From positions 12,177 through 76,176 of the forward strand of contig CAZODI010000002.1 in assembly GCA_964578535.1 (NCBI GenBank): DNA of 64,000 nucleotides. The letters are read 5' to 3'. The translations under genes were made by a program, and so were the position numbers. Positions 7,733 to 35,914 of this stretch are shown piece by piece (the stretch's first letter is position 1; every line of letters starts with the position of its first letter). The stretch comes from an uncultured Syntrophaceae bacterium. Its GTDB lineage: Bacteria; Desulfobacterota; Syntrophia; Syntrophales; PHBD01. The notes beneath the pieces are model-generated. The model was not told the DNA's origin. It searched no databases and saw nothing but the letters and a program-made list of their open reading frames with translations.

Positions 7733-10700
7733 GGTTCGTACTCCCGGGGTTTCCGGGCGACGAACCACCAGACCTCGCGGTCCGGCGACATGGGTTCCGG
7801 AAGGCCGACTCGCAGACCCGCGTCTTCGATCGCCTGCCGGACCTCTTCGACGGTGCGGAACCGTGCCCGGCCGCCGTGCCATTTCAGCCGCTTCTCCTCG
7901 AACCGGCGCTCCGGCGAGGGGGCTGGAAAGGACGGGACGAGGGCCCGGAGGACGAGGACCCCTCCCGGCTCCATGATCGCAGAAATTCGGGAGAGGGTCA
8001 GGCGGAGCTCCCCATCGTCGAGTATGTGGATCACGTCGAGGAAGAGCACCGCGTCGACCGGATCGGGGATGAAAGGCAGGTCCGGTGCCTTTCCCACGGC
8101 CATTCTGCCCCGGTCGCCGACGGCCCGGGCGGCGACCCGGACCCGGTCGGGATCGGGATCGAGACCGAAGACCCGGGCGCCCGGGTTGATCTCCAGGAGC
8201 CAGGACGACGGGATTCCGTATCCGCAGCCGATGTCCAGGATCGTCCTGGGATGGGGGACGAAGGAAGCCAGGCGCGGGAACATGGGATCCAGGCGCAGCT
8301 TGAAGAATACGAAGGCCCGCACATATCCCTCGATCCGGCGGTAGCGGGCGAGTACACGCCGGGCGTGCTTCTCCGATCCGGCCTCGAAGGTCTCTTCGGG
8401 AAGGGCCGCCGGCCGGTAAAGCCGCCGGAGCAGCGGCGGCACGATGGCGATGGTCCCGAGGAAGGAATAGCCGATTCCCAGGGCGAGGGCGATCCCGGCG
8501 CTGCTCAGCATGGCATGGCTTGCCAGGGCCAGGACGCCGAATCCCAGAAACGTGGTGGCGAAGGAAAGCAGGACCGACAGGCGGACGAGCGCCATGGAGG
8601 GATGCTTTTCATCGAGATACCGCTGCTGGGAGCGGACGATGTACATGGCGTAATCGGTTCCCATCCCGATGATGACGGCGGACACCATGATCGTCGGAAT
8701 GCCCGGGGGCCTCCCGATCAGGTGGAGGGTCCCCAGGGTGCAGATGAGCGAGAAGGCCGTCGGGGCCAGCGCGATGAGGGTCAGCCGGAGGTCCAGGAGA
8801 TACAGCGCCGCCACCACGAGGGTCAGGAGGCCGACGATGAGCGCCACCCGGAGAAAGCCGTCGAGGATGACCCCGCCGAGGCGCTCCGTGAATACGCCCG
8901 GGTCGAACAGCCGGGCGAGGCCGGAAGTGTGGAGGCGTTCAAAGAAGTCTCCTCCCCGGTAGGCGGGACCGGGAAGTACCGTGACAAACTGGCGCCAGGG
9001 GCCCGCTCCCGTGGACGGCGCGATTCCCAGGAGACCGTAGAGGGTGGTCGGGATCTCCACGGCACTTCCCGCCGCCGTTTCCAGGCGTCGCAGGAACGGA
9101 TCGAAGGATTGGGGACGAAAGCCCTCCACTTCCGCCGCCTCTGCCAGCCTGCGCCGGCAGGACTCTGCTCGCTCCGTCGTCCAGAAGGCCCGCCAGGCCA
9201 GCCGGTTTGCCGCGGCTCGTTCCGGCCCGGGGAAGGCCGTGGAGGCCACGAAAGCCGCCGACAGGACTCCCTTTTCGAGGTCCTCGTCCAGCAGGGCCGT
9301 CAGGCGGTCTCCCTTCTCCCGCAACTCCCGGTAGGAATTCCCTTCCGACAGCAGGTAGACCCGGTTCAGGATGTCGCCCCAGGCCCGTTTCATCTCCTCT
9401 TCCGCGGCAAGGGTCTCGGGCCGGACGGTGTTGAGGGACTTCAAGTCCACACGGAAATCGGGCCGGGCAAAAGGGAGGAGGGCCAGGCAAAGGACCAGGG
9501 CCGCCCAGGGCTTCCAGGCGGGATCGGCGGAGGACAGCTTCTCGGAGAGGCGCCGGAGCCAGGGGGTTCCCTCCCGGGCGGACGCGGGCACGACGGGGAA
9601 GAGGAACGGATAGACCAGGTGGACGAAGGCGAAGGTGAAAATGACGCCTAGGGCGGCGAAGGCGCCGAGCTGGGCCAGGGCCGGGAATCCGCTCAGGAAC
9701 AGGAAGGAGAAGCTGACAGCCGTCGTCAGCATTGCAAGGAGTCCCAGGGACCAGACTTCTCGTGTCGTGTCGAGCCCCCGGGTCTCGCGGGTCCGGTCGA
9801 GGAACAGGAGATAGGTGATCCCGTAATCGACGGTAAAGGAGATGATGGCGCCGCCGAAGCCGATGGCGAGAACGGAGATCTCTGACCGGAAGAGGGACAG
9901 GACGAAATAGGCCAGGGCCGTTCCCATGACAGCGGGAAACAGGGCGAGCAGTCCCAGGAGAGGGCGCGGGAATCCGATCAGCAGGAGGATGGCTATCGCC
10001 ATGGTGGAAAAGACCATGGCCCGGCGGGTGTCCGTTTTGGCGGCGTTTTCATTGTCCAGGGCGGCCCGGTAGGCCCCGACAGGGGTCAGGACGAGCCGGG
10101 GCTTGCCGGTCCAGGTCCGGTTCAGCTCCGCCTGGATGTCCGCGAAGAGACGGTCCGCCTGCCTGGCGAAGTCTGTGGCGGTGGCCGATGTCTTTGGCTC
10201 CGCGACGATAAGACAGCGGGAGCTGTCGGCGGAGAGCAGGACGTCACCCGACGGCCGGGCGCCCTTCGCCGGCTCCAGGTGTGCCATCCGGCCGAGGATG
10301 AGGAAGCGCAGCCCCAGAGGATCCGAGGCCAGCCAGCGGGCCTGGCCGATGCCTTCCAGGCCTTGGATCATCAGGGCCTGCCTGTGGACCGCGTCACGGA
10401 CGGACGGCCCCTCCAGGAGCGGGGCCACGTTCCGTCGGAGATCCCGCTCCGAGAACAGAAAGGGCAGGTTTTCCACGATCCCGTCCACCAGTTCCGGGAA
10501 AGCCCCACTTCCGCGTCCAGCCCGACCCGGCGAAAGAGCCCGCTGTCCCTCATTTTTTTTACAACAAGAGCCCCCCCTTCCTGGAGCGCCCTGGGATCCA
10601 CCGGGTCGCACCGCAGATCCGCAACGATGCGGTCCTGCATGGGATGGCTCTTCAGGACGGCCCCGGCATCCGCCAGGACGGGGTCTCCGGCGGGGAGGGC

Positions 10701-10817
10701 GTTGAGGATGTCTGTGTCCACGCCCATGCGGGTCTTCCCGACCAGGAAAAGGGCCGCCACGACGATCACGACGGCCAGGGCAAGACTCCAGCGCAACATG
10801 GGAGGGGATTTTTTCAT
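7729..10817 (-). CDS. MMPL/RND-type exporter fused to a C-terminal class I SAM methyltransferase; reading frame broken by an apparent 1-nt indel at 10503-10506
   Basis: The N-terminus (TM helix plus periplasmic start, MKKSPPMLRWSLALAVVIVVAALFLVGK...) lies in ORF 10371..10817. The rest (two 6-TM bundles, then ...ILDIGCGYGIPSSWLL...VLFLDVIHIL... methyltransferase) lies in ORF 7729..11016. The frames meet at the minus-strand GTGGGGC. One extra G would give ...GLDAEVGAFPELVDGIVENLPF... uninterrupted. Confidence 0.7.
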
Positions 10818-11431
10818 GGGCGGACTGTGGGGCGGGTTTTTTTCGGCTCGATTTCCAGGAGGAACCGGTTCTCCTTACGGTACTGGATCGGCCGGACGAT
10901 GTAATCCCTGTCCGGCACCAGTTCAACGGCCGCCCGGATGGACCCGGAAGCCGGGTCACGGCTGATCCGGACCTGGCGGACCAGGGGACCCTTGCCGTCC
11001 TGCTGGGCCGGCACACCCGGGTCGATGGAGGCGTTGGGGACGTCGAAATAGATCCGGGGCTTCTCTCCCGGAATCGTCCTGAGGACGGGCCGGTGGGGAC
11101 GGCTGAACGTGAAGGAGACCCGTTCCCGCCCCTTCGGGTCCGCCTCGCATCCGACGCTCTTCAGGAGAAGGGGGGCGGCTTTTGGCCTGTCTCCCGGGGG
11201 ACTGCCCTTCCCCGCTTCGGATTTCTTCAATGCCTCTGTCTGTCCGTCGTTCCAGCCGGCCTGCGGCGCCGGTTTCGCATGTCCCGTTTTCACGGCCGGC
11301 GGACTGTCCGCGGCGGAGACAGGCGCACTGCCCGGCGGTTTTGCAGCATCCGGAACGGTTCGTCCGGATTCGCCGAAGGCCTGGACGGCCGCGAACAGAA
11401 AAAGGATCAGGAAAAGGCCGATGCGGTTCAT
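10814..11431 (-). CDS. secreted AMIN domain-containing protein
   Basis: Signal peptide MNRIGLFLILFLFAAVQAFG, then a Pro/Ala-rich linker. The C-terminal segment ERVSFTFSRPHRPVLRTIPGEKPRIYFDVPNASI...VRQVRIS...IRAAVELV fits the AMIN pattern. Its stop overlaps the exporter ATG. Confidence 0.6.
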   Translation of the reverse strand: MNRIGLFLILFLFAAVQAFGESGRTVPDAAKPPGSAPVSAADSPPAVKTGHAKPAPQAGWNDGQTEALKKSEAGKGSPPGDRPKAAPLLLKSVGCEADPKGRERVSFTFSRPHRPVLRTIPGEKPRIYFDVPNASIDPGVPAQQDGKGPLVRQVRISRDPASGSIRAAVELVPDRDYIVRPIQYRKENRFLLEIEPKKTRPTVRP

Positions 11432-11494
11432 GGACCGGAAACCCCTTCGGAATGCGGCGGGATCCCTCCCCGGAAGCTCGTTTTCACCAGCCGG

Positions 11495-12229
11495 TTACCG
11501 GGAAGCCGGGGAATCTTCCTCGATCGGGCTTACCGGTTCCGGGTCGTTCATCAGGGGCCCCCAGTTCCCCCGCAAGGTCTCGCGCTCCCGACTCTTCCGG
11601 AGAAGCTCCAGGAAGTGGCTGCGGGAAATAAAGCGGGCGCCGAGGCTTCCCAGGTGGGCCGTATGGACCTGGCAGTCCACAAGAAGAAAGCCGAGTTTCC
11701 GGAGGCGCCGGACCAGGGCGATGAGGGCGACCTTGGAGGTGTTGCTCATCGCCGAAAACATGGACTCCCCGAAGAAGCACCCGCCGAGGGATACGCCGTA
11801 GAGGCCCCCCGCCAGTGTGTCCCCATACCAGACCTCCACGGAGTGGGCAAGGCCGGATTGGTGCAGCTCCCGGTAGGCCTCCCGCATTTCCGGCGTGATC
11901 CAGGTTTCCGGACTGCCGGGACGAGGCTTCCGGCAGGAGTCGATGACGGAGGAGAATGCGGCGTCAAAGGTGACCCGGAAGAGATTCTTTTTGAGGAGCT
12001 GGCGCATGCTCCGCGACACCTTCAGCTCATCCGGGAAGAGAACGAACCGGGGATGCGGGGACCACCAGAGGATAGGCTCGCCGGGGCCGTACCAGGGAAA
12101 GATCCCGAGCCGGTAGGCCTCGACGAGGCGGGATGTCGAGAGGTCGCCGCCGACGGCCAGGAGACCCGATGGATCGGCCAGCCGGACCGGCGGAAAGACG
12201 GGCTCCCGGGGAAGCTGGAAGACCGGCAT
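11495..12229 (-). CDS. aat: leucyl/phenylalanyl-tRNA--protein transferase
   Basis: GIFPWY...[19 protein letters not shown] and GESMFS motifs are present. It lies immediately downstream of clpA. Confidence 0.9.
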
Positions 12230-12232
12230 GGG

Positions 12233-14524
12233 TTATCCCGGGACCTCCTCCAGAACCCGGATCACCACATCGTCCCCTTCGAGGTCCGCCAGGGCCGAGC
12301 CGCCCTTCTGCAGGCGGCCGAACAGCACTTCGTCCACGAAGAAATGCTTGATCTTGTCCTGGACGAGCCGGCCGATCTCCCGGGCGCCGAACTCCGGGGA
12401 GTATCCGCGGCGGGCCAGCTCCTCATAGCAGCGCTCCGTCACCTCCAGGGAGACGCCCTTTTCTTTGAGCTGGTCGACAAATTCGCCCACGGTCTTTTTC
12501 ACGATCGATAGGACGACGTCCGGCGGAAGGCTCTCAAAGTGCACGACGGCGTCCAGGCGGTTCCGGAACTCGGGAGAGAACGCCTTCTCCACGGCGGCCG
12601 ACACGGCGTCCTTGTTGATGGACCGGCTCTCGAAGCCGATGACGGACCGCCCGATCTGGCGCGCCCCTGCGTTGGAGGTCATGATCAGGATCACGTTCCG
12701 GAAGTCCGCCTTCCGGCCGGCATTGTCCGTAAGCGTGGCGTAGTCCATGACCTGGAGAAGGGTGTTGAAGACGTCCGAGTGGGCCTTTTCGATTTCGTCC
12801 AGCAGAAGGACTGCGTGCGGTTCCTTGCGGACCGCCTCCGTCAGGAGACCTCCCTCCTCGTACCCCACGTAACCGGGGGGGGCGCCGATGAGGCGGGCCA
12901 CCGTGTGCTTCTCCTGGTACTCGCTCATGTCGTACCGGTGGAGCGGCACGCCGAGAATGGCCGCCAGTTGCCTGGCCAGCTCCGTTTTGCCCACCCCCGT
13001 GGGACCCACGAACAGGAAGGAGGCGACGGGCTTCTGGGGCTCCCGGAATCCCGCCCGGGCGCGCTTGATCGCCTCCGCGACGGCGGTGACAGCGCCGTCC
13101 TGGCCGAAGATCTGCTTTTTCAGGTCCGGAATCAGGGCGCGCAGCTTTTCCGCATCGGAGGAGGAGACGTTCTTCTCGGGAATCCGGGCCATCCGGGCCA
13201 CGATGCCCTCGACGGCCGGGCGGTCGATGGTGCAGGAGGCGTCTTCCTCGTCCCGGGTCATGGCCGCGCAGGCGCCCGCCTCGTCCAGGACGTCGATGGC
13301 CTTGTCCGGGAGGTGCCGGTCGTTGATGTAGCGAGCCGCCAGCTCGGATGCCGCCTGGAGGGCCTCTTCCGTGTAGGACACCTGGTGGTAGAGCTCGTAG
13401 CGCTCCCGGAGGCCCTTCAGGATCTCCAGGGTTTCCTGGCTTGTGGGCTCGGGGACGTCGATTTTCTGGAACCGGCGGGACAGCGCTCCGTCCTTCTCGA
13501 AGTGCTTCCGGTACTCGTCGTAGGTCGTGGAGCCGATGCAGCGAATCTTGCCCGACACCAGGGCCGGCTTGAGGATGTTGGAGGCGTCCATGGAGCCGCC
13601 GGAGACCGCGCCGGCGCCCACGATGGTGTGGATCTCGTCGATGAACAGGATGACCTTGTCCACCTTCTCCAGCTCGGCGATGATCTTTTTCATCCGTTCT
13701 TCGAAGTCTCCCCGGAAACGGGTTCCCGCCAGGATGGCGCCCATGTCGAGGGCGTAGATCTTCGATCCCTTGAGCCGCTTGGGAACCTTCCCTTCGACGA
13801 TGAGGCGTGCCAGCCCCTCGGTGATGGCCGTCTTGCCGACACCCGGATCGCCGACATGGACGGGATTGTTCTTGAAACGCCGGCAGAGAACCTGCATCGT
13901 CCGCGTGAGGATGTCCTCCCGGCCGATGAGGGGATCGATCTCCCCGGCTTTTGCCTTCGCGGTCAGGTCCGTCGTGAAGGCACTCAGGATCTTGGCTCCT
14001 CCCTCCGCTTCTTTCTCCTTTTCCTTTCCCGGAACGGCCTTCCGGATTTCCTGATCCCGGGTGCGCCGGCCCAGCGGCTCCTCCTGGCTGACCGTCGGGA
14101 TGACGCGGATGCCGTGGGAGATGTAATTCAGGAGGCTCAGGCGGGTGATTCCCTCGCGCTGCAGGAAGTAGGCGGCGAAGGACTCGGGCTCGCTGAGCAT
14201 GGAGACCAGGACGTCCCCCAGCTCGATCACGTCCTTCTGGGCGGAGAAGGTGTGCCGCACCGCCCGCTCCATGAGGCGGTGAAATCCCAGGGATTGGAGG
14301 GGATCGGATTCCGTCACCACGGGGTTTGTGTCCCGGAGATGCTTTTCCAGGGCGCCCTTGAGGCGCTCGACGTTGCCGCCGCTCTGCTCGATGATGTCCC
14401 GGCCCTCCTCGAAGAAGAGGCAGGCATACAGGACATGCTCGGGGGTGAGGAACTCGTGCCCCCGGGTCTTCGCTTCCGTATAGGCCGCCACGATGATGGC
14501 GTTCAGGTCTTCACTGATCTGCAT
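12233..14524 (-). CDS. clpA: ATP-dependent Clp protease ATP-binding subunit ClpA
   Basis: 763 aa with two AAA+ modules (GDPGVGKT and GPTGVGKTE Walker A motifs) and a Clp N-domain. Partners clpS and aat flank it. Confidence 0.95.
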
Positions 14525-14556
14525 AAAACCGTCCTTCCGCCGGGGGATCGCCCCGG

Positions 14557-14880
14557 TCAGGCCTCCTCCATGCTGCAGCGGAGGGGAAACTCCCTGTCCT
14601 TGGCCATGGAATGAACGAGGGATACCTTGGAGGAGGCGATGTCATAGGTATACACCCCGCAGATGCCCTTCCCCTTGCGATGGACATCCAGCATGATCCG
14701 CGTCGCTTCTGCCGCGGGCTTGTGAAAAACGGAGATCAGGACCTCCACGACAAAGTCCATGGTGGTGTAGTGGTCGTTATGGAGGATCACCCGGTACATT
14801 CGAGGCTCCCGGAGGTCCACCTCCTCTTCCACGTCGATGTCTTCCCCGGGCCGGGGCCGTTCAACCGGATCATTCGTCAT
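14557..14880 (-). CDS. clpS: ATP-dependent Clp protease adaptor ClpS
   Basis: PRMYRVILHNDHYTTMDFVVEVL..VFHK....A..IML.VH..G is the ClpS core. The start is taken at MTNDP (14880), downstream of the predicted promoter. Confidence 0.9.
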   Translation of the reverse strand: MTNDPVERPRPGEDIDVEEEVDLREPRMYRVILHNDHYTTMDFVVEVLISVFHKPAAEATRIMLDVHRKGKGICGVYTYDIASSKVSLVHSMAKDREFPLRCSMEEA

Positions 14881-14999: not shown

Positions 15000-15740
15000 T
15001 CAGATGGATCGTCGTGACCGGAGGGAGCGGGGCATCAGGAACCGCTGAATGATGAGGGAAGAGAATGTCCCGGAATTCCTCATGAAATCTACAAACGGCC
15101 GGTAGTGGGAGATTCGCTGGTTTCCCGGCGGATAGGTCACCCGGACGGGAACTTCCAGGACCGGGATGCCCCGCCACTGTGCCCGCACCAGGACCTCCAC
15201 CTCGAACTGAAAACGCCGGGCCCGCACGCCCAGGGACAGGGTTTCCGGCAGGGGGTAGACCCGGAAGCCGCTCTGGGTGTCCGCTACGGGAGGGCCCCCG
15301 GAGGCCCGGACCCAGAAGTTCGAGAATGTCCGGCCGAAACGGCTTGTCCAGGGAACTTCCCGGGCGTCCATGTCCTGGCGGTTTCCCACGACGATGGATC
15401 GCTTTTCCGCGGAGACAGCCGCCAGAAGGAGGGGGATGTCCGCCGGATCGTGCTGGCCGTCGGCGTCGATCGTGACCGCCCGGTCGGAGAAGCGGACGGC
15501 CTCCGCCAGCCCGGTGAGGATGGCGGCTCCCTTGCCCCGGTTTGCCTCATGGTGGAGGACGGTGATGCCCGCAACGGAAGACAGGACCTTCCGGGTGTCG
15601 TCGGTGGAGCCGTCGTTGACGACGATCACCGGGTATCCCTGTTCCAGAACCCGCCGGACGACCGAAGCGACGGTCGAGGCGTGGTTGTAAACGGGAATGA
15701 CCACGGCGATGCGGTTTATTCCGGGTGTCGGGGCAGGCAT
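15000..15740 (-). CDS. family 2 glycosyltransferase
   Basis: The N-terminal IAVVIPVYNHASTV......VVNDGSTDDT and DADGQHD motifs are typical of GT-A/GT2 enzymes. It is equivalent to the APE-cluster glycosyl/acyltransferase position. Confidence 0.8.
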   Translation of the reverse strand: MPAPTPGINRIAVVIPVYNHASTVASVVRRVLEQGYPVIVVNDGSTDDTRKVLSSVAGITVLHHEANRGKGAAILTGLAEAVRFSDRAVTIDADGQHDPADIPLLLAAVSAEKRSIVVGNRQDMDAREVPWTSRFGRTFSNFWVRASGGPPVADTQSGFRVYPLPETLSLGVRARRFQFEVEVLVRAQWRGIPVLEVPVRVTYPPGNQRISHYRPFVDFMRNSGTFSSLIIQRFLMPRSLRSRRSI

Positions 15741-15761: not shown

Positions 15762-17492
15762 TTACCGCTCGTCGTGGCCGGCTGCCTCCCTGCGGAGGAA
15801 GGCCACGGCCCACGTCTCCGGCCCCATGTGGGCGGCGGAGGTCCGTGACAGGGGCTCGAGCATGATCTCCACGGCGGGAAAACGCGAGTGGATCAGGGGC
15901 AGAATCTCCGCCTCCAGCCAGGGGCGGTTGTCAGAGTGCTCCAGGAGCACCCTGCCGGCTCCCGATGGAGCGAGCCCGGACTCCAGCTTTTCCAGGATGT
16001 AGCGGACCTGGTCCTTCCGGTTCCGGACGACGCCGACCTTTTTTGCCCCGTCGGGCAGCGGACTGATGACGGGCTTCATGTTCAGCATATCCCCGAAAAA
16101 GGCGCTTCCTTTTGACAGCCGCCCCCCTGCGGCGAGCCACTTCAGGCGGTCCAGGAAGATGTACTCTTCCGTCCGGGATGCGGCGTCCCGGGCAAAGGCC
16201 ACCACGGCCTCCGGGTCGGCCGCCTGGGAGGCGAACCGGGCCGTCTCAACGGCCATCAGGCCCAGCCGTCCCGAAGCGGCGCCGGTGTCGATCACGGTGA
16301 GGCGGTCGTCCGGGTCGTTGTTACGCTTCCAGTCCAGGGCCGTTTCATAATTGCCGGTGAAGACGGATCCGACGCAGAGATAGAGCACCCTTCCGAATCG
16401 GCTGACGACGCTCTCGTAGCTCTGCTGCCGCTCGAGAACGGACGCCTGGGAGGTGGAGACCTTTTCGCCCCGCCGCATGGCTTCGAACAGCTCATCCGGC
16501 GAAATCAGGGTTTCCGGAAGGCAGCGCTCTCCCACGGTGAGGTAGCTGTCCAGGAGCGTGATGCCCAGTTTCCGGGCGCCCTCCCGGGTCAGCGAGCCTG
16601 CGGCGTCGGTCATGATGTGAATCGGCGTGTCCGCCGCGGCCGCTCCGAAGTCGATCGTCTGCCGGGTCAGGTCGTCAACGGACCACCGGACGACCGGGGC
16701 GATGCTCTCGATGTCCCTCCGCAGCGAGACGGCGTCGTCGGTGTGCAGGTGAACCTTCAGGTAGTCCCGCTCGCGGATCATGACCACGCTCCGGCCGGCC
16801 GAGGCCAGCCGGTTGTAGGTCTCCTCCGGGTCGTCCGTTCCCTGGAGAACCAGATCCACGCACCATCCCCCTTCGTCGGGTCCAGACCCGGTCCGGCGGA
16901 CCCGGAGCCGCTCCCCGAAGGCCTCGGTGACCGGCCGGACGCCGGAGATGGAGTTTCCCAGTGCCGGGAAAAAACCTTCGAAAAACAGGTACATGCCGAG
17001 TGCGCCCGCATCGACCACACCGGCTTCCCGGAGCTTCGGCTGCTGCTCCACGGTGTTCCGGACCACGTCCTGAAGCCGGTCCATCAGCCGGCGGCACCAC
17101 CCCGGATCGGTCTCCCCGGAGGCGGTCCGCAGGCCCTCCTCCAGGGCCTCGAAAAAGGTCAGCATGGTTCCGGGTTTTGGCTCCCGTACGGCGCCCCGGG
17201 CCTGGTCGGCTCCCCGGGCGACCGCCGCGGCCAGCGACGGCATGTCCTCCGCGGGCAAAAGGCGGCTGAAAAAACGGGCGGCGATGTTGCCCGAGTTGCC
17301 TCGGGCGGAGAGGAGAAGGTCGCGGTTGAGGGCATCCCGCTCGCGCTCCGGGAAGCGCAGCGGCGCCAGGCTGAGGACGAGATTCCGTCCTGTGTCTCCG
17401 TCCGCCACGGGGAAGACGTTGATGTCGTCCAGGAGGTCGGACCAGGCGGTCACCCGTTCCACGCCGGCGGCAAGGGCCTTGTTCAAATCCAT
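15762..17492 (-). CDS. Dak2 (FakA-like) domain fused to a DegV (FakB-like fatty-acid-binding) domain
   Basis: The N-terminal INVFPVADGDTGRNL matches the Dak2/FakA signature. The C-terminal half carries DegV hallmarks: IMTDAAGSL, STSQASV, SVFTGNYETA, IDTGAASGRLG, LAAGGRLSK and LNMKPVIS. Confidence 0.75.
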   Translation of the reverse strand: MDLNKALAAGVERVTAWSDLLDDINVFPVADGDTGRNLVLSLAPLRFPERERDALNRDLLLSARGNSGNIAARFFSRLLPAEDMPSLAAAVARGADQARGAVREPKPGTMLTFFEALEEGLRTASGETDPGWCRRLMDRLQDVVRNTVEQQPKLREAGVVDAGALGMYLFFEGFFPALGNSISGVRPVTEAFGERLRVRRTGSGPDEGGWCVDLVLQGTDDPEETYNRLASAGRSVVMIRERDYLKVHLHTDDAVSLRRDIESIAPVVRWSVDDLTRQTIDFGAAAADTPIHIMTDAAGSLTREGARKLGITLLDSYLTVGERCLPETLISPDELFEAMRRGEKVSTSQASVLERQQSYESVVSRFGRVLYLCVGSVFTGNYETALDWKRNNDPDDRLTVIDTGAASGRLGLMAVETARFASQAADPEAVVAFARDAASRTEEYIFLDRLKWLAAGGRLSKGSAFFGDMLNMKPVISPLPDGAKKVGVVRNRKDQVRYILEKLESGLAPSGAGRVLLEHSDNRPWLEAEILPLIHSRFPAVEIMLEPLSRTSAAHMGPETWAVAFLRREAAGHDER

Positions 17493-17500
17493 GATGCTCC

Positions 17501-17920
17501 TCAGAACCCGAGGGCCAGGCGGATCTCGTCGGGGATGGAGAAGAGGATCTCCATCTCCGGCGCCTTCACCGCCACCTGCTCCGTCCGGCCGCGGGTGCAG
17601 ACCTGGCCGTCCGCCGCCAGGCGGATCTCGAAGTCGAAGACGAGCTTGAAGCGGGCCTCCCGGACGGTGGCCCGGCAGATGAATTCATCCTGGTAGCGGA
17701 GCGGGAGGATATGCTTCGTGGAGGTCCGGATGATGGGAAAAACGATGCCGGTGCGTCTGTAGATCTCGTAGAGGTCGATTCCGCGGGAGCCCAGCAGGGC
17801 GACGCGGGCGTCCTCGAAATAGTTCATGTAGTTGCCGTGCCAGACCACCTGGATGGGGTCCAGGTCGTAGAAGGGGACCCGGCGGGTGATCTCGAAGCGG
17901 ACAGGCTCTTTGCTTTCCAT
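17501..17920 (-). CDS. 4HBT/YbgC-type hotdog acyl-(ACP/CoA) thioesterase
   Basis: 139 aa. YDLDPIQVVWHGNYMNYFEDARVALL is the 4HBT-type catalytic Asp region. Confidence 0.75.
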   Translation of the reverse strand: MESKEPVRFEITRRVPFYDLDPIQVVWHGNYMNYFEDARVALLGSRGIDLYEIYRRTGIVFPIIRTSTKHILPLRYQDEFICRATVREARFKLVFDFEIRLAADGQVCTRGRTEQVAVKAPEMEILFSIPDEIRLALGF

Positions 17921-17945: not shown

Positions 17946-19499
17946 TTATGCCGGTGGGGCGGAGCGAGTGATGAAGGCGGCTACGGCCTCGATGTCCCGG
18001 TCCATTTCCCGGTCTTCCAGGACGGCCGGGGAGAGGCGGCGGACCGCACGGACCCACCGGGCCAGCCGGGGCCGGATGTTTGCGCCGCCGCGGATCTCGC
18101 AGGCCTGGACCGCCGCCAGGAGGTGGATGGCCGCCGCCCGCTCGGCGAGGGTGCAGACTCGCTCGGCGTCACGGGCTGCGATCGTGCCCATGCTCACCTT
18201 GTCCTGGTTGTTCGATTCTGTCGGCCGTGAGAAGGACCCCGCCGGCATGGTCAGTTTCAGGGCCTCCGCCGCCAGGGCCGAAATGGAGAGGGACAGGGCC
18301 TTGAAGCCGTGGCGAAGCAGGCTTTCGCGACCGTTGGCCCGGACCAGGTCCGCCGGCAGGCCTCGATTGGTATGGGGGTCCACCAGCAGGGCCACCTGCC
18401 GGTCCGACAGGTCCGCCACCGAGGCGACGGCCGTCTTGAGGGCGTCCGCGGCGAAGGCGATGTGGCCGCCGTAGAAGTTGCCGCTCATGACGGGGGGGCC
18501 GCCGGCGGGATCGAAAATCGGGTTGTCGTTGGCGCTGTTGGCCTCAATCTCGATCCACGGAACGACCCAGGCCAGGGCGTCGGCCAGGACGCCGGCCACC
18601 TGCGGAACGCAGCGGACCGAGTAGGGGTCCTGGAGGGTCTCCGGTGCATCCGCTTCTCCGGGCAACGTGCCGGTCTTCGTTTCCAGGAGCTCCCGGAGGC
18701 GCCGGGCCACCTCGACCTGGCCGGGATGGGGCTTCGCCTCCCCGGCGGCAGGGTGGAAGTGGGAGGCCTTGCCGCGGAGGGCATGGACCGTGAGTGCCGT
18801 CGCCCCGACCACGGCGTCGAGGATCCGCCGGGCCCGGTCGGCCGCCAGGACGGCGATGCCCGTCATGGTGGCGGTGCCGTTCATCAGGGACAGGGCTTCC
18901 TTCGACTCGAAGGCATAGGCAGGGAATCCGGCTTCCCGGATCGCAAGCGCGGCGGGCATCCGGACGCCGCGGTAAAAGACCTCCCGCTCGCCGATCAAGG
19001 CGGCGGCGACGTACGACATGGGCGTGAGGTCTCCCGAGGCCCCGACGGAGCCTTCACAGGGGACAACCGGCGTGATCCCCTCGTTCAGGAAGCGGGCCAT
19101 CCGCTCCAGGAGCGCCACCGATACCCCCGAGTATCCCCGGGCCAGGCCGATCATGCGGCAGAGCATCGCCGCCCGGGTCGCCTCGATCCCGATGGGCTCG
19201 CCGGTGCCGCAGCCGTGAAAATAGAGGGGGCTGCTGCCGCCGTTCTTCAGGACCTCCTGCCGGGAGAGACGCTTTCCGCAGGAGCGGCCGAACCCCGTGG
19301 TGACCCCGTAAACCGGGACATTGTCCCGGATGGCGTCCGCCAGGAGCCGGCGGGACCGCTCCATGGACCGGCGAAAGTCCCGCCCCGTTCCGATCCGAAC
19401 CTCCCGGCCGTCCACGGCGACCGCCACGATGTCTTCCATCGAAACCGGTTGTCCGTCGATGATGAGTGGTTTTGTCAATTGTTTCAAATTGTTCTTCAT
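17946..19499 (-). CDS. aromatic amino acid ammonia-lyase (HAL/TAL/PAL family, MIO-forming Ala-Ser-Gly present)
   Basis: GSVGASGDLTPMS carries the MIO triad, with YGVTTGFG, NGTA and ANSANDNP also present. The start is trimmed to MKNNLKQL (19499). The longer track ORF (to 20432) overlaps the next gene in another frame. Confidence 0.85.
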   Translation of the reverse strand: MKNNLKQLTKPLIIDGQPVSMEDIVAVAVDGREVRIGTGRDFRRSMERSRRLLADAIRDNVPVYGVTTGFGRSCGKRLSRQEVLKNGGSSPLYFHGCGTGEPIGIEATRAAMLCRMIGLARGYSGVSVALLERMARFLNEGITPVVPCEGSVGASGDLTPMSYVAAALIGEREVFYRGVRMPAALAIREAGFPAYAFESKEALSLMNGTATMTGIAVLAADRARRILDAVVGATALTVHALRGKASHFHPAAGEAKPHPGQVEVARRLRELLETKTGTLPGEADAPETLQDPYSVRCVPQVAGVLADALAWVVPWIEIEANSANDNPIFDPAGGPPVMSGNFYGGHIAFAADALKTAVASVADLSDRQVALLVDPHTNRGLPADLVRANGRESLLRHGFKALSLSISALAAEALKLTMPAGSFSRPTESNNQDKVSMGTIAARDAERVCTLAERAAAIHLLAAVQACEIRGGANIRPRLARWVRAVRRLSPAVLEDREMDRDIEAVAAFITRSAPPA

Positions 19500-19561: not shown

Positions 19562-20854
19562 TCAACCCTTTGTTGTCCCTTCCTCTCCGGACCTCTCCCC
19601 GCGGCGGCCGAACCTGGATTCCATCAGGTCCCGCCTGCGCCGGCGGTACGTGCCGTCTCGATGCTCCTTTTCGCTCACCTTTTTCAGGAGCTTGAACATC
19701 TTGTAGGTCTGGGGCTCGTCCCGGTAAAACGTGTCCCAGGCGTAGTGGAACAGCTCCTGGAGCTTCTCCGGCGACAGGTTCCGGGGCTGGAAGACGACCT
19801 TGTCGGCGGTGTAGTCGTTCCAGTCGTAGGACAGGATCCTCCCCTCCCGATGGAGGTCGTCGAACGTCCGGGTGTGGGGGAACGGAGTCAGGACGGTGAA
19901 TTCCGCCAGGTCCAGCTCGATCTCCATCAGGAAGTCGATGAGCCGCCGGATGCTGTCTTCCGTGTGATTGTCCAGGCCCAGGAGAATCGTCCCCTCGACG
20001 CCGATTCCGTGGTCGTGGTAGCGGCGGATGCGGTCCCGGATCGTGTCTGAGGTGTCGAAGACGGCCTGGTAGACGTACCAGGCCCCCGCCCGGGCGGCCA
20101 GATCCAGGATCTCCGGGTCGTCCTCGATGGGGTGGCTGCACCAGCTCTTCTTGAGGGGGATCATGGCCCGGAAGAGGTCCTTTTCCCACCGGCTGTCCTG
20201 GGCGAGGGAGTTGTCCACCACGAACAGGCGGTTGTTGTCGATGCCGGCAATCTCCTCGACCACCCGGTCGATGGGCCGGGGCCGGAACTGCCGTCCTCCA
20301 AGGAAAGAGACGCAGCAGGGGTAGCAGTTGAACCTGCAGCCCCGGGAGGCGTGGACCAGGTCCACCATCTGGACGCCCTTGTAATTGTACAGGTCCCGCT
20401 TGAGGATATCCCGCCGGGCCGGGCCGATCCACTCCGTCGGGGGACGATTGTCGAAGAAGTCATAGATTTTCTTGAGTTTTCCCTCCAGAAAGTCCCCGAT
20501 CACCTCCTCCATCCGTCCCTCTGCTTCGCCAAGGAAAATCGAGTCGGCGTGCCCGGCCGCCTCCTCGGCATGGAGCATGGTTCCGATCCCGCCGCAGAGG
20601 ACGGGAATCCCCCGGCGGCGGTACTCGTCGGCTATCTCCCATCCCCGCTTCACCTGGCTGGTGAGCATCATGGAGATGCCGACCAGGTCGGCCCTCTCCT
20701 CCAGGTCGAGGGGCTCCACGTTTTCGTCGGTGAAGGAGACCTCGACGCCCGGCGGCAGGGCCGCGGCGAAGACCACCGGCCCATGGGGCGGCAGGTGGAA
20801 TTCCGTCTGTCCTTCCAGTTTTCTCCAGCGGGGGTAGATCAGTTTCAATTTCAT
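19562..20854 (-). CDS. B12-binding domain radical SAM protein (class B)
   Basis: An N-terminal Rossmann-like B12-binding region (DLVGISMMLTS...) is followed by ASRGCRFNCYPC (CxxxCxxC). Confidence 0.85.
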   Translation of the reverse strand: MKLKLIYPRWRKLEGQTEFHLPPHGPVVFAAALPPGVEVSFTDENVEPLDLEERADLVGISMMLTSQVKRGWEIADEYRRRGIPVLCGGIGTMLHAEEAAGHADSIFLGEAEGRMEEVIGDFLEGKLKKIYDFFDNRPPTEWIGPARRDILKRDLYNYKGVQMVDLVHASRGCRFNCYPCCVSFLGGRQFRPRPIDRVVEEIAGIDNNRLFVVDNSLAQDSRWEKDLFRAMIPLKKSWCSHPIEDDPEILDLAARAGAWYVYQAVFDTSDTIRDRIRRYHDHGIGVEGTILLGLDNHTEDSIRRLIDFLMEIELDLAEFTVLTPFPHTRTFDDLHREGRILSYDWNDYTADKVVFQPRNLSPEKLQELFHYAWDTFYRDEPQTYKMFKLLKKVSEKEHRDGTYRRRRRDLMESRFGRRGERSGEEGTTKG

Positions 20855-20888: not shown

Positions 20889-21602
20889 TCAAGGGGTGTC
20901 CCCCTCCTCTTCGTCCGGGGCGGTCTCCGGCCGGCTCTCCAGCCGGACGGGTGTCCCGGTCAGGAGGGTCAGCGTGAGCCGGTAGGGGAAGGGGCCGTGG
21001 CCCGCCAGTTCCAGCTTCTTCGACAGGCCGTGCTCGCTCAGGCCCGTTGCCGTGAGCGTCCGGGTCAGAGCTCCCTCGCGGTACAGCCGGACCTCCCACC
21101 GCTCGGGTCCCGCAAGGACCACGTCCGTGGCCGTGTCCGGATCGTTCCGGAAGCGGCAGGCGGGGCGGTTTCCCTCTTCCAGCCCCACGGTTTCCGGGAG
21201 GGCCGCCGGCGGGAAAAGGCAGAAGGTCACGTCCCGGATCAGGGAGCGGGCGAAATCCCTGTTGGTGAACGGCGAGACGGCCCGCTCGATTTCCATGGTT
21301 TCCCCTTCGACCCGGGCGGTGAAGAGGACGAAGCCCTCGAGGGTCATGAGGGTGAGGCGAAGGGTCTGCGCAGCGGGATCCGCCACGGTGATCCCGATGG
21401 CGGAGGTCGCGCTCCCGTCGGGCAGGACCGCCTGAAGGGAGTGGATCAGCCGCGTCTCCTCCCGGAGGAACGGAAGCCGGCACTCCTGCCGGGTCCGTTC
21501 GAGCGATAATCCCTCGCCGGGCCGGATGGGCGGGAGGGTGCTGCAGGAGGCCAGAAGAAACACCGCAACCGGGATAAGGACAAGGGGCCCAAGCCGCTTC
21601 AT
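20889..21602 (-). CDS. lipoprotein (APE-cluster DUF3261-like position)
   Basis: Lipobox LLASC follows a signal peptide. The protein has no enzymatic motif. Its position between the LolA-like and core genes mirrors the APE-cluster lipoprotein. The family assignment is from memory only. Confidence 0.55.
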   Translation of the reverse strand: MKRLGPLVLIPVAVFLLASCSTLPPIRPGEGLSLERTRQECRLPFLREETRLIHSLQAVLPDGSATSAIGITVADPAAQTLRLTLMTLEGFVLFTARVEGETMEIERAVSPFTNRDFARSLIRDVTFCLFPPAALPETVGLEEGNRPACRFRNDPDTATDVVLAGPERWEVRLYREGALTRTLTATGLSEHGLSKKLELAGHGPFPYRLTLTLLTGTPVRLESRPETAPDEEEGDTP

Positions 21603-22228
21603 GGGGCCGCCTCGCCGGGATCCGCGAACAGCCGCTCGGATAAAGGAAGGTTGTGCTCCGTCCGGGTGAACTCCAGCATGGTCCAGGCGTCCTTTCCTTC
21701 GACGATTTTCACGCTCCGGATGGCGCCTTTCTTCTCCGGCGAAAAGGCGATCTCGATCCGGGAGATCAGGTTCACGAGGGCCGGATCTCTCGGGACGAGG
21801 ACGACCCGGGCGGTCCTTCCCCCCTCGAGGCGGGCGGTGAACCGGGGATCGGTGTCGAAGCGCCCCTGCGTCCAGGCGGCGATCTCGTCCATCACCATCT
21901 GCATGCCCTGGAGCCGTTCGCCCGACTCGGGAACCCAGCCCTTGTCTCCATAAATATAGCGCTTGGCACTGCCCCTGTGAATCAGAAGAACGCTCCGGAC
22001 CGGTTTGGAGTACTCCCAGCGGACCGAGCCGGGGGCCTGGAAATAGAAGCGGCCCTCCGACACGAACGGCTTCGCCAGGATGGGCAGGTGTTTCTTCTGG
22101 ACGAACCGGGCCCGGATCGACCGGATCTGCCCCGCCTCCCGGCGGATCGCGTCCCAGGAATCGGCCCAGCCGGCCAGGAGGAGCGCCAGGGCCATCGTGA
22201 GCAGCGGCACCGCGACGCGGAAGCGCAT
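21599..22228 (-). CDS. LolA-like outer-membrane lipoprotein carrier family protein
   Basis: Signal peptide MRFRVAVPLLTMALALLLAG, then IRARFVQKKHLPILAKPFVSEGRFYFQAPGSVRWEY, which fits the LolA fold pattern. The start is chosen at MRFRV. Confidence 0.65.
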   Translation of the reverse strand: MRFRVAVPLLTMALALLLAGWADSWDAIRREAGQIRSIRARFVQKKHLPILAKPFVSEGRFYFQAPGSVRWEYSKPVRSVLLIHRGSAKRYIYGDKGWVPESGERLQGMQMVMDEIAAWTQGRFDTDPRFTARLEGGRTARVVLVPRDPALVNLISRIEIAFSPEKKGAIRSVKIVEGKDAWTMLEFTRTEHNLPLSERLFADPGEAAP

Positions 22229-22337: not shown

Positions 22338-23066
22338 TTAGAACATGCCGCCGTTGACCGAGATCACCTGGCCGGTGATGTACGACGCGTCCGGGGAGCA
22401 TAGAAAGCGGACCACGTTTGCCACCTCCTCGGGGCGCCCGATGCGGTTCATGGGAATGATGTCCTTGATGCGGTCCACCGGGGCGTGGGCGATCATCTCC
22501 GTCTCGATCAGGCCCGGGGCGACCACGTTGACCCGGATGCCCAGGCGGGCCACCTCCGCGGACAGGGAACGGCTGGCGGCAATGAGGCCCGACTTGGCGG
22601 CCGAGTAGTTTACCTGCCCGCGGTTGGGGACCAGGGCCGCCACCGAGGAAACGGACACGATGGACCCGGACCGGCTCCGGGCCATCTTCCGGAGGACCGG
22701 CTTGGTCATGTTGTAGAAGCCCTTCAGGGTCGTCTGCAGGACCCGGTCCCAATCGTCCTCGGGCATCATCATGAACAGCCCGTCGGCGGTGACGCCGGCA
22801 TTGTTCACCAGGACGTCGATTTTCTTGTGGCGGTTCAGGATTTCCTTCATGTGCCGGTCCGTGTCGTGGCTGTCGGCGACGTCGAAGCGGACCGTCTCGC
22901 CGTCCCCGCCCGCTTCCCGGATCCGATCCAGGGTCTCCGCCGCCGCCGCGTCGTTGGACCGGTAATTCACGATCACGTAATAGCCTGTCCGGGCCAGCTC
23001 CATGGATACGGCCCGGCCGATTCCCCTGCTTCCGCCCGTTACGATGGCCACTGCGGCATCGCTCAT
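22338..23066 (-). CDS. fabG: 3-oxoacyl-ACP reductase (SDR, FabG family)
   Basis: [12 protein letters not shown] and YSAAKSG motifs are present. The start overlaps the upstream stop in an ATGA. Confidence 0.9.
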
Positions 23067-23530
23067 GATTCCGTCTTTCCCTCCCCGTTCCCTTCTTCGC
23101 CGAAGACCTGGATCTGCACGCGGGCGAGGGTTTCCCCGCCGGTCTCCGCGATTCCCTCGAACACGCTGTAGCCTTCGATGCTGTAAAGCAGACGGACCCG
23201 CGTCTGCACGACCGACCGAAGCGGCACCTTCTCGACCAGGAAGTCGGCGCTTTTGATGCCGACGATCCAACCCAGGGAGGCGCTCTTCTTCCCCTGGCGC
23301 TTCCGCCTGGCGCCGATGCAGACCGCCGCCGACTGGGCCGTCAGCTCGATCAGGATGACCGGATCCACCCCATCGGGACCGGCCGCAGGCCAGGAGGCGG
23401 CGACCAGGGAGCGCGTGACGGCCGTCTGGTCGTCCAGGTCCACGATCTCGTCGATCAGCCGGAGGCGGTCCCGGTGCGGAATCAGGTCCTCGATCTTCAG
23501 GTCGCTGGTCTTCAGGTCTGGCATTTTCAT
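23063..23530 (-). CDS. hotdog-fold beta-hydroxyacyl-ACP dehydratase (APE ApeI/ApeP-like)
   Basis: [15 protein letters not shown] is the dehydratase His motif of FabA/FabZ-like APE dehydratases. 155 aa. Confidence 0.7.
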
Positions 23531-29724: not shown

Positions 29725-30561
29725 TCAGTTCGCCGGCTTTACGGCGGACACCCGGATGCTCACCGCCGTGGCGGCGAGATCCGACAACTCCTCCCGGGAA
29801 AGCCCCAGATCGCGGACCATGGTCTGGACCGTGGGATCGTTAAGCAGGAAGTCCACCGGGAAGACGTTTTGCCCGACGACCTCAATGCCCGTGAATCCCG
29901 CTGCGGCGATCGCTCCCAGGTAATCGGCTTTCCGTGCCGCCCCGGCCACGCAGCCGATCCAGGCGGTGAGTGACGCCTTGATCGCCTCCGGAAGATCCTT
30001 CGTCAGGACGATGTCCGAGACCATCAGCCGCCCCCCCGGTCTGAGGATCCGGAAGGCCTCCCGGAATACCTGCTGCTTGTCGGGCGAGAGGTTGATGACG
30101 CAGTTCGAGATGATTGCGTCGGCCTCCCCGTCCGCCACAGGCAGGTGCTCGATCTCGCCCAGGCGGAAGGCCACGTTTTCGTAGCCCCCCTTCCGGGCGT
30201 TTTCCCGCGCCTTCTCGATCATCTCCGGTGTCATGTCCACGCCGATGACCCGCCCCGTGGGTCCCACCTGCCGGGACGCCAGGAAGGCGTCGAAGCCCGC
30301 TCCGGACCCGAGGTCCACGACCGTCTCCCCTTCCCGGAGGGAAGCCAGGGCGACGGGGTTGCCGCAGCCGAGGCCGAGGTTCGCCCCCTCCGGGACGGAG
30401 GCCAGGTCCTCATCCGAGTAGCCGACAGCCTTGCCGATTGCCGCCGCCTGCTGTGCACCTCCACAGCAACCCGCGATGGGCAGGCTGCAGCAGGAATTCC
30501 CCGTGACGGCGATCTTCCCGTACCCTTCCCGGACATTGGTCCGGATGTCTTCGTTTTTCAT
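29725..30561 (-). CDS. arsM: arsenite S-adenosylmethionine methyltransferase
   Basis: VREGYGKIA, N-terminal Cys pairs, VVDLGSGAGFD and ISNCVINLSPDK are ArsM hallmarks. Confidence 0.85.
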   Translation of the reverse strand: MKNEDIRTNVREGYGKIAVTGNSCCSLPIAGCCGGAQQAAAIGKAVGYSDEDLASVPEGANLGLGCGNPVALASLREGETVVDLGSGAGFDAFLASRQVGPTGRVIGVDMTPEMIEKARENARKGGYENVAFRLGEIEHLPVADGEADAIISNCVINLSPDKQQVFREAFRILRPGGRLMVSDIVLTKDLPEAIKASLTAWIGCVAGAARKADYLGAIAAAGFTGIEVVGQNVFPVDFLLNDPTVQTMVRDLGLSREELSDLAATAVSIRVSAVKPAN

Positions 30562-30952: not shown

Positions 30953-30971
30953 TGTTGCTCCAGAATGGATT

Positions 30972-35912: not shown

Positions 35913-35914
35913 GC

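Follow-up and report, generated by a model that had tools for sequence, protein, structure and literature searches.

A predicted single-chain fatty-acid kinase and an Asn-type PlsY in an aryl-polyene-like lipid gene cluster of an uncultured Syntrophaceae bacterium

We analysed a stretch of 64,000 nucleotides from an uncultured Syntrophaceae bacterium (GenBank assembly GCA_964578535.1, contig CAZODI010000002.1, positions 12,177 to 76,176 of the forward strand; hereafter the window), in which a gene at 15762..17492 on the minus strand encodes a 576-residue protein, here called the kinase, that is predicted to unite a fatty-acid kinase and its substrate carrier in one polypeptide. The kinase gene is a constant member of a family of aryl-polyene-like, radical-S-adenosylmethionine (radical-SAM)-rich lipid clusters, and the same clusters carry a distinct variant of the acyltransferase PlsY with Asn in place of an active-site His. 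We read the two as a cluster-dedicated single-chain fatty-acid kinase that would feed acyl-phosphate to an Asn-type PlsY, a proposal whose chances, taken over the whole chain of steps, we consider evenly balanced. Domain architecture, residue conservation, fold, cluster specificity and gene associations are described below as found, and it is from these that we infer the chemical steps and the identity of the acid.

Domain architecture of the single-chain kinase

The open reading frame (ORF) of the kinase is a real gene: it begins with ATG, has a GGAG ribosome-binding site 4 nt 5' of that codon, shows a G+C content at third codon positions of 0.85, and its coding frame is marked by the frame-specific G+C profile in a window of about 65% G+C. 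It starts 8 nt after the stop codon of a thioesterase gene, TE1 (17501..17920, minus strand), and ends 21 nt before a gene for a family-2 glycosyltransferase, GT2 (15000..15740, minus strand), and because of these short gaps the TE1-kinase-GT2 arrangement looks operon-like. The original prediction had placed a 4HBT thioesterase directly before the kinase, and this is borne out by the 8-nt gap and by matches of TE1 to the Pfam families 4HBT and 4HBT_2.

Pfam recognizes three domains, all read on the minus strand. The first is the Dak2 or FakA_N ATP-Mg domain (residues 28-174, 16971..17411; PF02734, 56.5 bits), the second the FakA middle domain FakA-like_M (residues 209-279, 16656..16868; PF21645, 31.7 bits), and the third, standing where FakA would have its FakA_C domain, a DegV or FakB-type acid-binding domain (residues 291-567, 15792..16622; PF02645, 156.8 bits), which also passes the NCBIfam DegV model TIGR00762 (157.8 bits, cut-off 99.7). 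The earlier description of a single 576-residue chain joining Dak2 to a full DegV domain, which was to be checked with Pfam, thus stands in its two named domains and falls short in its count, since the middle domain makes a third; the Dak2 motif that it quoted, FPVADGDTGRNL, lies at residues 27-38.

The C-terminal half is what sets the protein apart. The YloV/FakA model covers the kinase with only its N-terminal 302 of 530 model positions, and a search of the Protein Data Bank (PDB) by sequence matched FakA over kinase residues 9-277 only, residues 290-568 being matched instead by fatty-acid-binding DegV proteins and FakB. The Pfam scan gave no match in the kinase to the FakA_C docking domain PF13684. 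We considered whether the C-terminal half could be a normal FakA_C docking domain and rejected this, given the absence of a PF13684 match, the strong DegV score and the match to FakB structures at full size. By its sequence and its structural model, the kinase is best described as FakA_N and FakA_M followed by a complete FakB-type domain that replaces the compact, FakB-docking FakA_C. It scores 68.2 bits against the FakA equivalog (cut-off 975) and 56.3 bits against the FakB1 equivalog (cut-off 350), so that, lacking FakA_C, being fused and scoring far below both cut-offs, it would resemble FakA plus FakB in its working while being a member of neither equivalog family.

Conserved residues and predicted fold

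We assessed residue conservation in alignments of 14 and of 76 homologs; the invariance figures given here refer to the 76. In the Dak2 domain the Mg-binding DGDTG motif is invariant, its D31 and D33 corresponding to D37 and D39 of Streptococcus suis FakA. The core RGN-GNI of the segment SARGNSGNI (R64-N66 and G68-I70) is likewise invariant, with S62 and S67 conserved in at least 90% of sequences, and VVDAGALG is invariant except at A162. In the middle domain, the predicted zinc site shows C211 and H248 without exception and H250 in at least 90% of sequences; in the alignment these three fall on C244, H289 and H291 of the S. suis FakA zinc finger, where the fourth ligand is H226. In the DegV half, T347 and S376 reach at least 90%, and R458 and H555 show no variation. 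We take T347, S376, R458 and H555 as the probable counterparts of FakB T61, S93, R170 and H264, a mapping drawn from alignment with the DegV protein 1pzx and from motif positions. In FakB, T61, S93 and H264 bind the carboxylate, and R170 is essential for phosphotransfer.

An AlphaFold2 model of the kinase, built on the 76-sequence alignment and searched against the PDB with Foldseek, reached a mean pLDDT of 87.9 and a pTM of 0.90. Over about 285 columns, its C-terminal domain fits complete DegV/FakB structures loaded with fatty acid at target template-modelling (TM) scores of 0.78-0.88, and its N-terminal domain matches Staphylococcus aureus FakA_N at a TM score of about 0.73. Together, the alignments and the model support the view that the N-terminal half has all the features by which a FakA would be competent as a kinase, and that the FakB-type domain joined to it has all those by which it would hold a ligand.

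Cluster specificity of the kinase

A genome scan with one genome per species returned at least 594 kinase matches, and neighbours were counted around the best 80 by running the proteins of the window cluster with tblastn against 10 kb on either side of each kinase gene. These 80 relatives are full length, share 48-95% identity with the window kinase and come from Syntrophaceae, Smithella, Syntrophus, Desulfobacterales (Desulfosudis oleivorans, Desulfosalsimonas), SAR324 and Spirochaetota/Leptospirales; the close ones, at 86-95%, belong to uncultured Syntrophaceae and Syntrophales. A protein search returned at least 120 clusters of 53-95% identity that carry all three Pfam domains and are named only 'DegV family', and an identical kinase was found on metagenome contigs with the same neighbours.

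In 80 of the 80 species genomes the kinase lies inside an aryl-polyene-like, radical-SAM-rich lipid cluster, a count that rests on the loci reaching beyond the gene, all of which show cluster-type genes. Gene order around the kinase varies between lineages. Its most constant neighbour is TE1, which stands directly upstream in 67 of the 80 loci; also found nearby are GT2 (52/80), the vitamin B12-binding radical-SAM-like protein (47/80), an aromatic amino-acid ammonia-lyase (42/80), the LpxL-like acyltransferase (39/80), the MMPL transporter-methyltransferase fusion (32/80) and the PlsC-like gene (15/80). Because it lies in the cluster in all 80 genomes, across several phyla and in shuffled gene orders, the kinase is a signature gene of the cluster family and not a housekeeping neighbour. 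Further clusters of the family could readily be recognized in metagenomes by two sequence markers, the kinase gene and the Asn-type PlsY described below.

The frequency of the ammonia-lyase raises one alternative for the substrate, namely that the DegV domain binds the acid made by the lyase (p-coumarate or a derivative) and that the kinase turns it into an activated acyl-phosphate, in place of or in addition to the AMP-forming ligase of the cluster. The lyase is directly upstream of the kinase, or of TE1 and the kinase together, in 42 of the 80 loci; it touches the kinase gene in seven of them (L006, L007, L016, L051, L063, L065 and L080), and the isolated kinase module of locus L170 has a lyase, with no AMP-ligase up to 10 kb away. 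Some half of the loci, however, have no lyase beside the kinase, a 4-coumarate-ligase-like AMP ligase is present in the window cluster and in the PlsY module of other genomes, and the structures that the C-terminal domain matches are of DegV proteins of full size that bind long-chain fatty acids (TM 0.78-0.88). DegV proteins are not known to bind small aromatic acids. We therefore regard an aromatic substrate as improbable.

The Asn-type PlsY paralog

The second gene on which the proposal depends lies at 43438..44043 on the plus strand, its GTG start overlapping the stop codon of a PlsC-like gene (42584..43441, plus strand, with 42578 as a possible start). Both had been named in the original prediction, together with a second thioesterase gene, TE2, at 39553..40029 on the plus strand. 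All three assignments hold: TE2 is of the same 4HBT/YbgC type as TE1 and exceeds the TIGR00051 cut-off (80.9 bits against 68.7); the PlsC-like protein matches PF01553 with 71 bits and has an HX4D motif (NHLSFLD) and FPEGTRS, while scoring below the AGP_acyltrn cut-off (60.2 against 102.95); and the PlsY-like protein matches PF02660 (G3P_acyltransf) with 106.2 bits and Aquifex PlsY (5XJ5) with 54.8 bits, at 77.9 bits against a cut-off of 137.2 for the PlsY equivalog TIGR00023.

The most conspicuous feature of the PlsY-like protein, also foreseen from the letters of the window, is Asn in place of His in the GH..P motif, where its GNRFPCF aligns with GHMYPVF of Aquifex PlsY. According to our alignment, Asn at the His92 position (N92) is invariant across the subfamily, in which GN(R/S)(F/Y)PCFH replaces GH..P.F and LDxGRA replaces LDxxKG. 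The subfamily keeps SGNxGxTN (SGNAGTTNVYR in the window), GGKGVA and the equivalents of H177 and N180 (H178 and N181), and the window protein has all of the PlsY substrate-site residues S35, N37, T41, R45, K104, H177 and N180. Acyl-phosphate is bound in Aquifex PlsY by just two side chains, of which His92, in the 'phosphate hole', is one, and position 92 is His in 97.8% and Asn in 0.5% of the PlsY family (PMC5700162). Just after Asn92 the subfamily has an invariant Cys96 and an invariant His98 (PCFH), and one might speculate that His98 compensates for the lost His92.

A metagenome scan with patterns specific to this subfamily returned at least 507 relatives, whose context was counted in 39 loci of at least 6 kb. 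The Asn-type PlsY lies inside this cluster type in 38 of the 39, and its closest partner is TE2, present in 28 of them and in most of these directly upstream; the commonest order is radical-SAM, radical-SAM, ketosynthase, ketosynthase, TE2, PlsY. A tblastn search with Aquifex PlsY, covering all fetched loci of the cluster clade, gave 87 hits, none of them His-type: 84 are Asn-type and 3 are without the motif. Since the gene sits in the cluster in 38 of 39 loci and belongs to a distinct Asn-type subfamily, its context argues that it is a cluster-specific paralog.

A distant clade beside plsY

An exhaustive search of representative proteins revealed a second tier of full-length Dak2-FakA_M-DegV proteins, with 26-34% identity to the window kinase and the same three domains. 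The family is large, occurs in Marinimicrobia, KSB1 and Rhodothermia-like Bacteroidetes, and is annotated only as 'DegV family protein'. In all four loci inspected (fusion gene and plsY at L171:6001-8467, L172:6001-8629, L173:5001-7446 and L174:3895-6800), plsY is immediately adjacent to the fusion gene; in three it directly follows the fusion gene on the same strand, and in the fourth the two genes are divergent. The PlsY of this clade keeps the His, with canonical motifs in three of the four and divergent ones in L174. The neighbours are housekeeping genes (def, fmt, rsmB, secDF, ccmF), and no thioesterase or polyketide genes were found near the fusion genes of these four loci. PlsY can use the acyl-phosphate that FakA/B make, and PlsC cannot (PMC13400652); the recurrent pairing of fusion gene and plsY is therefore good evidence, by comparison, that PlsY is fed by single-chain proteins of the Dak2-FakA_M-DegV type. 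In these Gram-negative phyla the distant clade appears to represent a single-chain Fak paired with PlsY that has so far gone undescribed.

These loci bear on two further explanations for the kinase of the window. The first is that it is a general kinase for exogenous fatty acids, placed beside the cluster by chance, with the plsY/plsC pair belonging to the general phospholipid pathway. That the distant clade, of the same architecture, looks housekeeping would fit this idea. It is nevertheless hardly credible, given that all 80 species genomes, from several phyla and with rearranged gene orders, have the kinase within the cluster, that the Asn-type PlsY is likewise a cluster gene in 38 of 39 loci, and that the PlsY score stays below the equivalog cut-off; moreover, a residue found in 0.5% of PlsY proteins, which as H92N left the Aquifex enzyme 6.9% activity, would be unlikely in a sole essential enzyme. 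The second is that the protein is a non-catalytic lipid chaperone, its DegV domain carrying the completed lipid, or the acid of that lipid, to the MMPL/LolA-like export machinery and its Dak2 domain using ATP only to gate loading or release. The gene does sit in the export and attachment module in most lineages (LolA-like, DUF3261, kinase, GT2, MMPL-methyltransferase), as a chaperone might. The Asp pair that binds Mg and the Arg that FakB needs for phosphotransfer are, however, invariant, as is the GNSG loop apart from S67 (at least 90%), and the occurrence of the same architecture beside plsY in other phyla points to acyl-phosphate chemistry, which makes a purely carrying role very unlikely.

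Proposed route and competing explanations

In the route that we propose, the co-transcribed 4HBT thioesterase TE1 would free an acyl chain built on one of the acyl carrier proteins (ACPs) that belong to the cluster, and the DegV domain of the kinase would capture the free acid through its conserved Thr/Ser/Arg/His carboxylate site. The Dak2 domain would then move the gamma-phosphate of ATP onto the carboxylate to give acyl-phosphate, with which the Asn-type PlsY would acylate glycerol-3-phosphate. The final product, a specialised glycerophospho-glycolipid akin to the aryl-polyene lipids, would be finished and exported by the PlsC-like and LpxL-like acyltransferases, GT2 and the MMPL/LolA-like/DUF3261 machinery. 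In this way, thioesterase and kinase would stand in for PlsX where the chain is borne by a non-housekeeping ACP; the annotation of the window cluster includes no plsX.

The outline of this route, thioesterase to kinase to PlsY, was already part of the original prediction, and it comes out of the analysis partly strengthened and partly weakened. In its favour are the predicted competence of the kinase, its status as a cluster signature, TE1 in 67 of 80 loci, the Asn-type PlsY in the cluster in 38 of 39, and plsY beside the distant fusion gene in 4 of 4. The two genes also travel together to some extent: they are immediate neighbours in L049 and L108, are separated by a few kb in L006/L016, L048, L083, L084 and L132, and share one contig wherever both were traced (the window, a 1.13-Mb Syntrophaceae contig, a 151.8-kb contig and a Spirochaete contig).

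Several observations weigh against the proposal, and they concern both the genes and the chemistry. Kinase and PlsY are often far apart: about 26 kb in the window and 55-60 kb in two other genomes (the 151.8-kb and the Spirochaete contig), where they occupy separate loci with unrelated flanking genes. PlsY was found within 10 kb of the kinase in only 5 of the 80 loci, most of which were viewed to 10 kb, so that a PlsY missing nearby does not mean one missing from the genome. Because of the 55-60 kb separation, the linkage in many lineages is genome-level and not operon-level, and we reject the stricter notion that PlsY always shares a locus with the kinase. Aquifex PlsY H92N keeps 6.9% of its activity with an unchanged Michaelis constant (PMC5700162); given that Asn replaces His92 in the phosphate hole, the Asn-type PlsY may, by analogy with this mutant, use another donor or be a poor enzyme. 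The whole-chain model of the kinase, for its part, has the same domain order as the S. suis FakA crystal structure and superposes on it with a TM score of 0.29, because of which we take the modelled domain arrangement to differ from the extended, domain-swapped crystal form of FakA. As for the first step of the route, ApeK-type thioesterases showed no acyl-ACP hydrolysis in vitro and have been proposed to be proofreaders, and in Xenorhabdus the special acids are proposed to pass directly from ACP to lipid via ApeD and ApeJ (bioRxiv 10.1101/2020.12.19.423268). On balance, we find the reading thioesterase, kinase, acyl-phosphate, PlsY plausible from the genes and their associations.

The same two enzymes could also handle a more ordinary substrate. 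They might supply saturated C14-C16 chains to the sn-1 position, or recycle acids from a proofreading ApeK-like thioesterase, with the special acids going directly from ACP to lipid via the HX4D, LpxL-like, DarH or GT2-associated acyltransferases. The aryl-polyene lipid of Xenorhabdus indeed has plain C14/C16 at one glycerol position, its conjugated acid and aryl polyene being proposed to come directly from ApeF and ApeE (bioRxiv 10.1101/2020.12.19.423268), and the lack of release activity of ApeK in vitro would agree with such a division of labour. Since the distant plsY-adjacent clade sits among housekeeping genes, the ancestral substrate was probably an ordinary fatty acid, and S. aureus Fak recycles the intracellular pool of free fatty acids (PMC5539427). 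Against this, a dedicated kinase and PlsY for ordinary acids would duplicate the housekeeping PlsX/PlsY; the Asn where acyl-phosphate would bind, together with Fak and PlsY scores that fall short of their thresholds, points to altered specificity; and the pairs TE1-kinase and TE2-PlsY are tight within polyketide-type modules. We consider an ordinary substrate rather unlikely, though it is the main contender.

Returning to the proposed route for a specialised acid, one could carry it further and speculate that acyl-phosphate is the activated form in which a polyketide-type acid held on a private ACP (aryl-polyene, conjugated or radical-SAM-modified) moves into a membrane lipid, bypassing PlsX, that the change from His to Asn fits PlsY to a bulky or rigid acyl-phosphate, and that single-chain Fak with plsY is a widespread and unrecognised arrangement in Gram-negative phyla. 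This extended version is tentative, and we lean towards doubting it in full. If the proposed route itself holds, it would extend acyl-phosphate chemistry to natural-product-like lipids, explain by what means an acid becomes activated again once one of the enigmatic ApeK-type thioesterases has released it, and provide a simple fused enzyme for the study of phosphotransfer or for making acyl-phosphate in vitro.

Comparison with known systems

The nearest described counterparts of the kinase are FakA and FakB of Firmicutes (S. aureus; S. suis complex, PDB 7W7H), with which it shares the Asp pair of Dak2, the Cys/His site of the middle domain, the Thr/Ser/Arg/His carboxylate site of DegV and the expected product, acyl-phosphate for PlsY. 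It differs in being one polypeptide in which a whole FakB-type domain replaces FakA_C (PF13684), in being hosted by Gram-negative anaerobes, and in being encoded in a biosynthetic cluster beside a thioesterase. Textbook Fak is a two-protein Gram-positive scavenger of host fatty acids, and a 2023 review describes it as a Gram-positive strategy, Gram-negative bacteria being said to use acyl-CoA or acyl-ACP synthetases instead (PMC10146087). Here a one-protein form is common in Gram-negative anaerobes and several other phyla, and in one clade a specialised-lipid cluster appears to have taken up the predicted kinase together with a thioesterase and a PlsY variant particular to it. The acyl-phosphate route has so far been described only for ordinary lipids of Gram-positive bacteria; the location of the genes suggests that in these anaerobes a special membrane lipid is made in this way. 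The domain combination Dak2-FakA_M-DegV already exists in databases. Our search of the literature library at hand found no paper on a fused FakA-FakB enzyme, on its pairing with plsY or on Fak in a biosynthetic cluster, the only mention being one sentence on 'Dak2-DegV fusions' in a heliorhodopsin preprint that cites Erni 2006.

A similar union of kinase and carrier is familiar from dihydroxyacetone kinases (DhaK/DhaL and the fused Citrobacter enzyme), which exist as two-subunit and as fused single-chain forms and in which a Dak2 domain phosphorylates a substrate held on a separate EDD-fold domain; in the window protein the substrate domain is DegV and not Dak1, and the order is reversed with respect to Citrobacter, where DhaK is N-terminal. 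The distant Dak2-FakA_M-DegV clade (L171-L174) shares the three-domain architecture and the association with plsY, and differs from the window cluster in its housekeeping neighbours, its His-type PlsY and its 26-34% identity. As regards the PlsX/PlsY/PlsC pathway, represented by PlsY of Aquifex aeolicus (5XJ5), the window has a member of the PlsY family with a PlsC-like HX4D gene immediately upstream, whereas Asn92, the new invariant PCFH, LDxGRA and the confinement to this cluster type set the subfamily of the window PlsY apart.

At the level of the cluster, the closest likeness is to the attachment and export module of aryl-polyene clusters (ApeD, ApeJ, ApeK, ApeL, ApeM and ApeN of E. coli and Xenorhabdus), which has in common with the window a thioesterase, GT2, acyltransferases, a LolA-like protein, DUF3261 and MMPL; judged by these families, the kinase sits in a module resembling that of aryl-polyene clusters. 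The aryl-polyene core is also recognizable in the window in an ApeP-like dehydratase, a ketoreductase, ketosynthases, ACPs and MMPL. The canonical aryl-polyene gene table contains neither a kinase nor a PlsY (PMC8253772), and the aryl-polyene product of Xenorhabdus is a glycerol-phosphate-GalNAc lipid with three acyl groups (bioRxiv 10.1101/2020.12.19.423268). Unlike those clusters, the window has MMPL and methyltransferase fused, extra radical-SAM enzymes (TIGR04072), DarG and DarH, and a starter that is probably provided by ammonia-lyase and ligase, as in flexirubin. The extra radical-SAM enzymes and the TIGR04072 member suggest a modified product. The earliest association made for the TIGR04072 family was with proposed clusters for ladderane lipids in anammox bacteria, and the radical-SAM and ketosynthase block of the window recalls the Kuenenia/Desulfotalea clusters of Rattray et al. 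(PMC2649909).

A flexirubin/dialkylresorcinol cluster is the other candidate for the whole, the DarG_fam and DarH cut-offs being passed in the window. We rejected it, as no match to the resorcinol-forming pair DarA/DarB was found among the window genes scanned and the flexirubin equivalogs stay below their cut-offs (FlxA 276.6 against 700, FlxB 300.8 against 340, flexirubin_DarG 124.5 against 170).

Gene content of the window cluster

The minus-strand part of the cluster begins with an LpxL-type (Lip_A_acyltrans) acyltransferase (6818..7732; PF03279, 70.4 bits; HX4E motif SHLGNWE) and a fusion protein of 1029 residues that joins an MMPL transporter to a C-terminal SAM methyltransferase (7729..10818; ApeM plus ApeB-like), followed by an inserted set comprising a gene for a 205-residue protein of no assigned family, Aat, ClpA and ClpS (10814..14880). 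Next to these come GT2 (ApeJ-like; Glycos_transf_2, 91.5 bits), the kinase and TE1 (4HBT/YbgC type, ApeK-like). The strand continues with the aromatic amino-acid ammonia-lyase (17946..19439; tyrosine or histidine ammonia-lyase type; Lyase_aromatic, 496.6 bits; 497 residues in L001), a B12-binding radical-SAM-like protein (19562..20854), a DUF3261 protein (20889..21602; ApeN/LolB-like; PF11659 at 22.6 bits, just above the threshold of 22.3), a LolA-like chaperone (21599..22228; ApeL-like; LolA2_flexi, 81.6 bits, and Pfam LolA in L001), a FlxB/FabG-like ketoreductase (22338..23066) and the ApeP-like dehydratase (23063..23530; PF22817 in L001).

The plus-strand part opens with the 4-coumarate-ligase-like AMP-forming ligase (23766..25112; ApeH/FlxY-like), after which family scans place an ABC exporter, an ACP and ketosynthases. 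A methyltransferase on the minus strand (29725..30561; 'arsenite methyltransferase' subfamily, 356.3 bits against a cut-off of 263) precedes the B12-binding radical-SAM protein (30937..32484, plus strand) that exceeds the cut-off of the 'lipid biosynthesis' equivalog TIGR04072 (391.8 against 360). Further along the plus strand lie a polysaccharide deacetylase and dehydratases, and then a block of radical-SAM, uncharacterised, radical-SAM, ketosynthase and ketosynthase genes (34143..39471), which in related loci stands 5' of TE2 and PlsY. Between TE2 and the PlsC-like gene are a polyketide synthase (PKS)-type dehydratase, an ACP and a ketosynthase. PlsY is followed on the same strand by a DarG-family protein (44057..44575; DarG_fam, 140.1 bits, cut-off 70) and a DarH BtrH-like acyltransferase (about 44587..45570; DarH, 436.5 bits, cut-off 300), where a frame switch was seen; a long ORF at 44050..45570 is an artefact, its first 180 codons overlapping DarG in another frame. 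After DarH come another B12 radical-SAM enzyme on the plus strand and an ACP on the minus strand.

Some further observations concern gene order and fusion. Split clusters, each of two self-contained modules 55-60 kb apart, were seen on contig_41524 of ERZ25039554 (L169, 8794-29372, and L170, 71680-93398) and on JAFGBT010000019.1 (L168 and L063). One of their modules reads deacetylase, dehydratase, ACP, radical-SAM, radical-SAM, ketosynthase, ketosynthase, TE2, PlsY, B12 radical-SAM, and the other B12 radical-SAM, lyase, TE1, kinase, GT2, MMPL/methyltransferase, LpxL-like; in L170 a GHMP sugar kinase and a nucleotidyltransferase follow the kinase module. The MMPL-methyltransferase fusion, kept in 32 of the 80 loci, unites ApeM and ApeB, which are separate genes in E. 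coli. In other lineages it mostly follows directly after GT2; in the window, and likewise in L009, the two are split by the block of Aat/ClpA/ClpS and the 205-residue protein (10814-15177), a housekeeping block that interrupts the cluster only in this Syntrophaceae lineage. ClpA is one intact ORF of 763 residues in the window (12233-14524) and two overlapping genes (560 and 211 residues) at L001:10699-12989 and L002:9030-11320, on contigs with an identical kinase, a discrepancy that is probably due to a frameshift or an assembly difference. The methyltransferase at 29725-30561, on the opposite strand inside the cluster, has a counterpart in 0 of 160 related loci and is probably a lineage-specific insertion. 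Finally, related clusters have beside PlsY or TE2 a protein of about 500-511 residues with a phosphopantetheinyl-transferase (ACPS) domain (L006:16139-17674, L007:11808-13343 and L168:7571-9073), which in L168 is fused to a PKS-type dehydratase domain; the window counterpart, the PKS-type dehydratase ORF at 39843..40916, shows dehydratase domains only.

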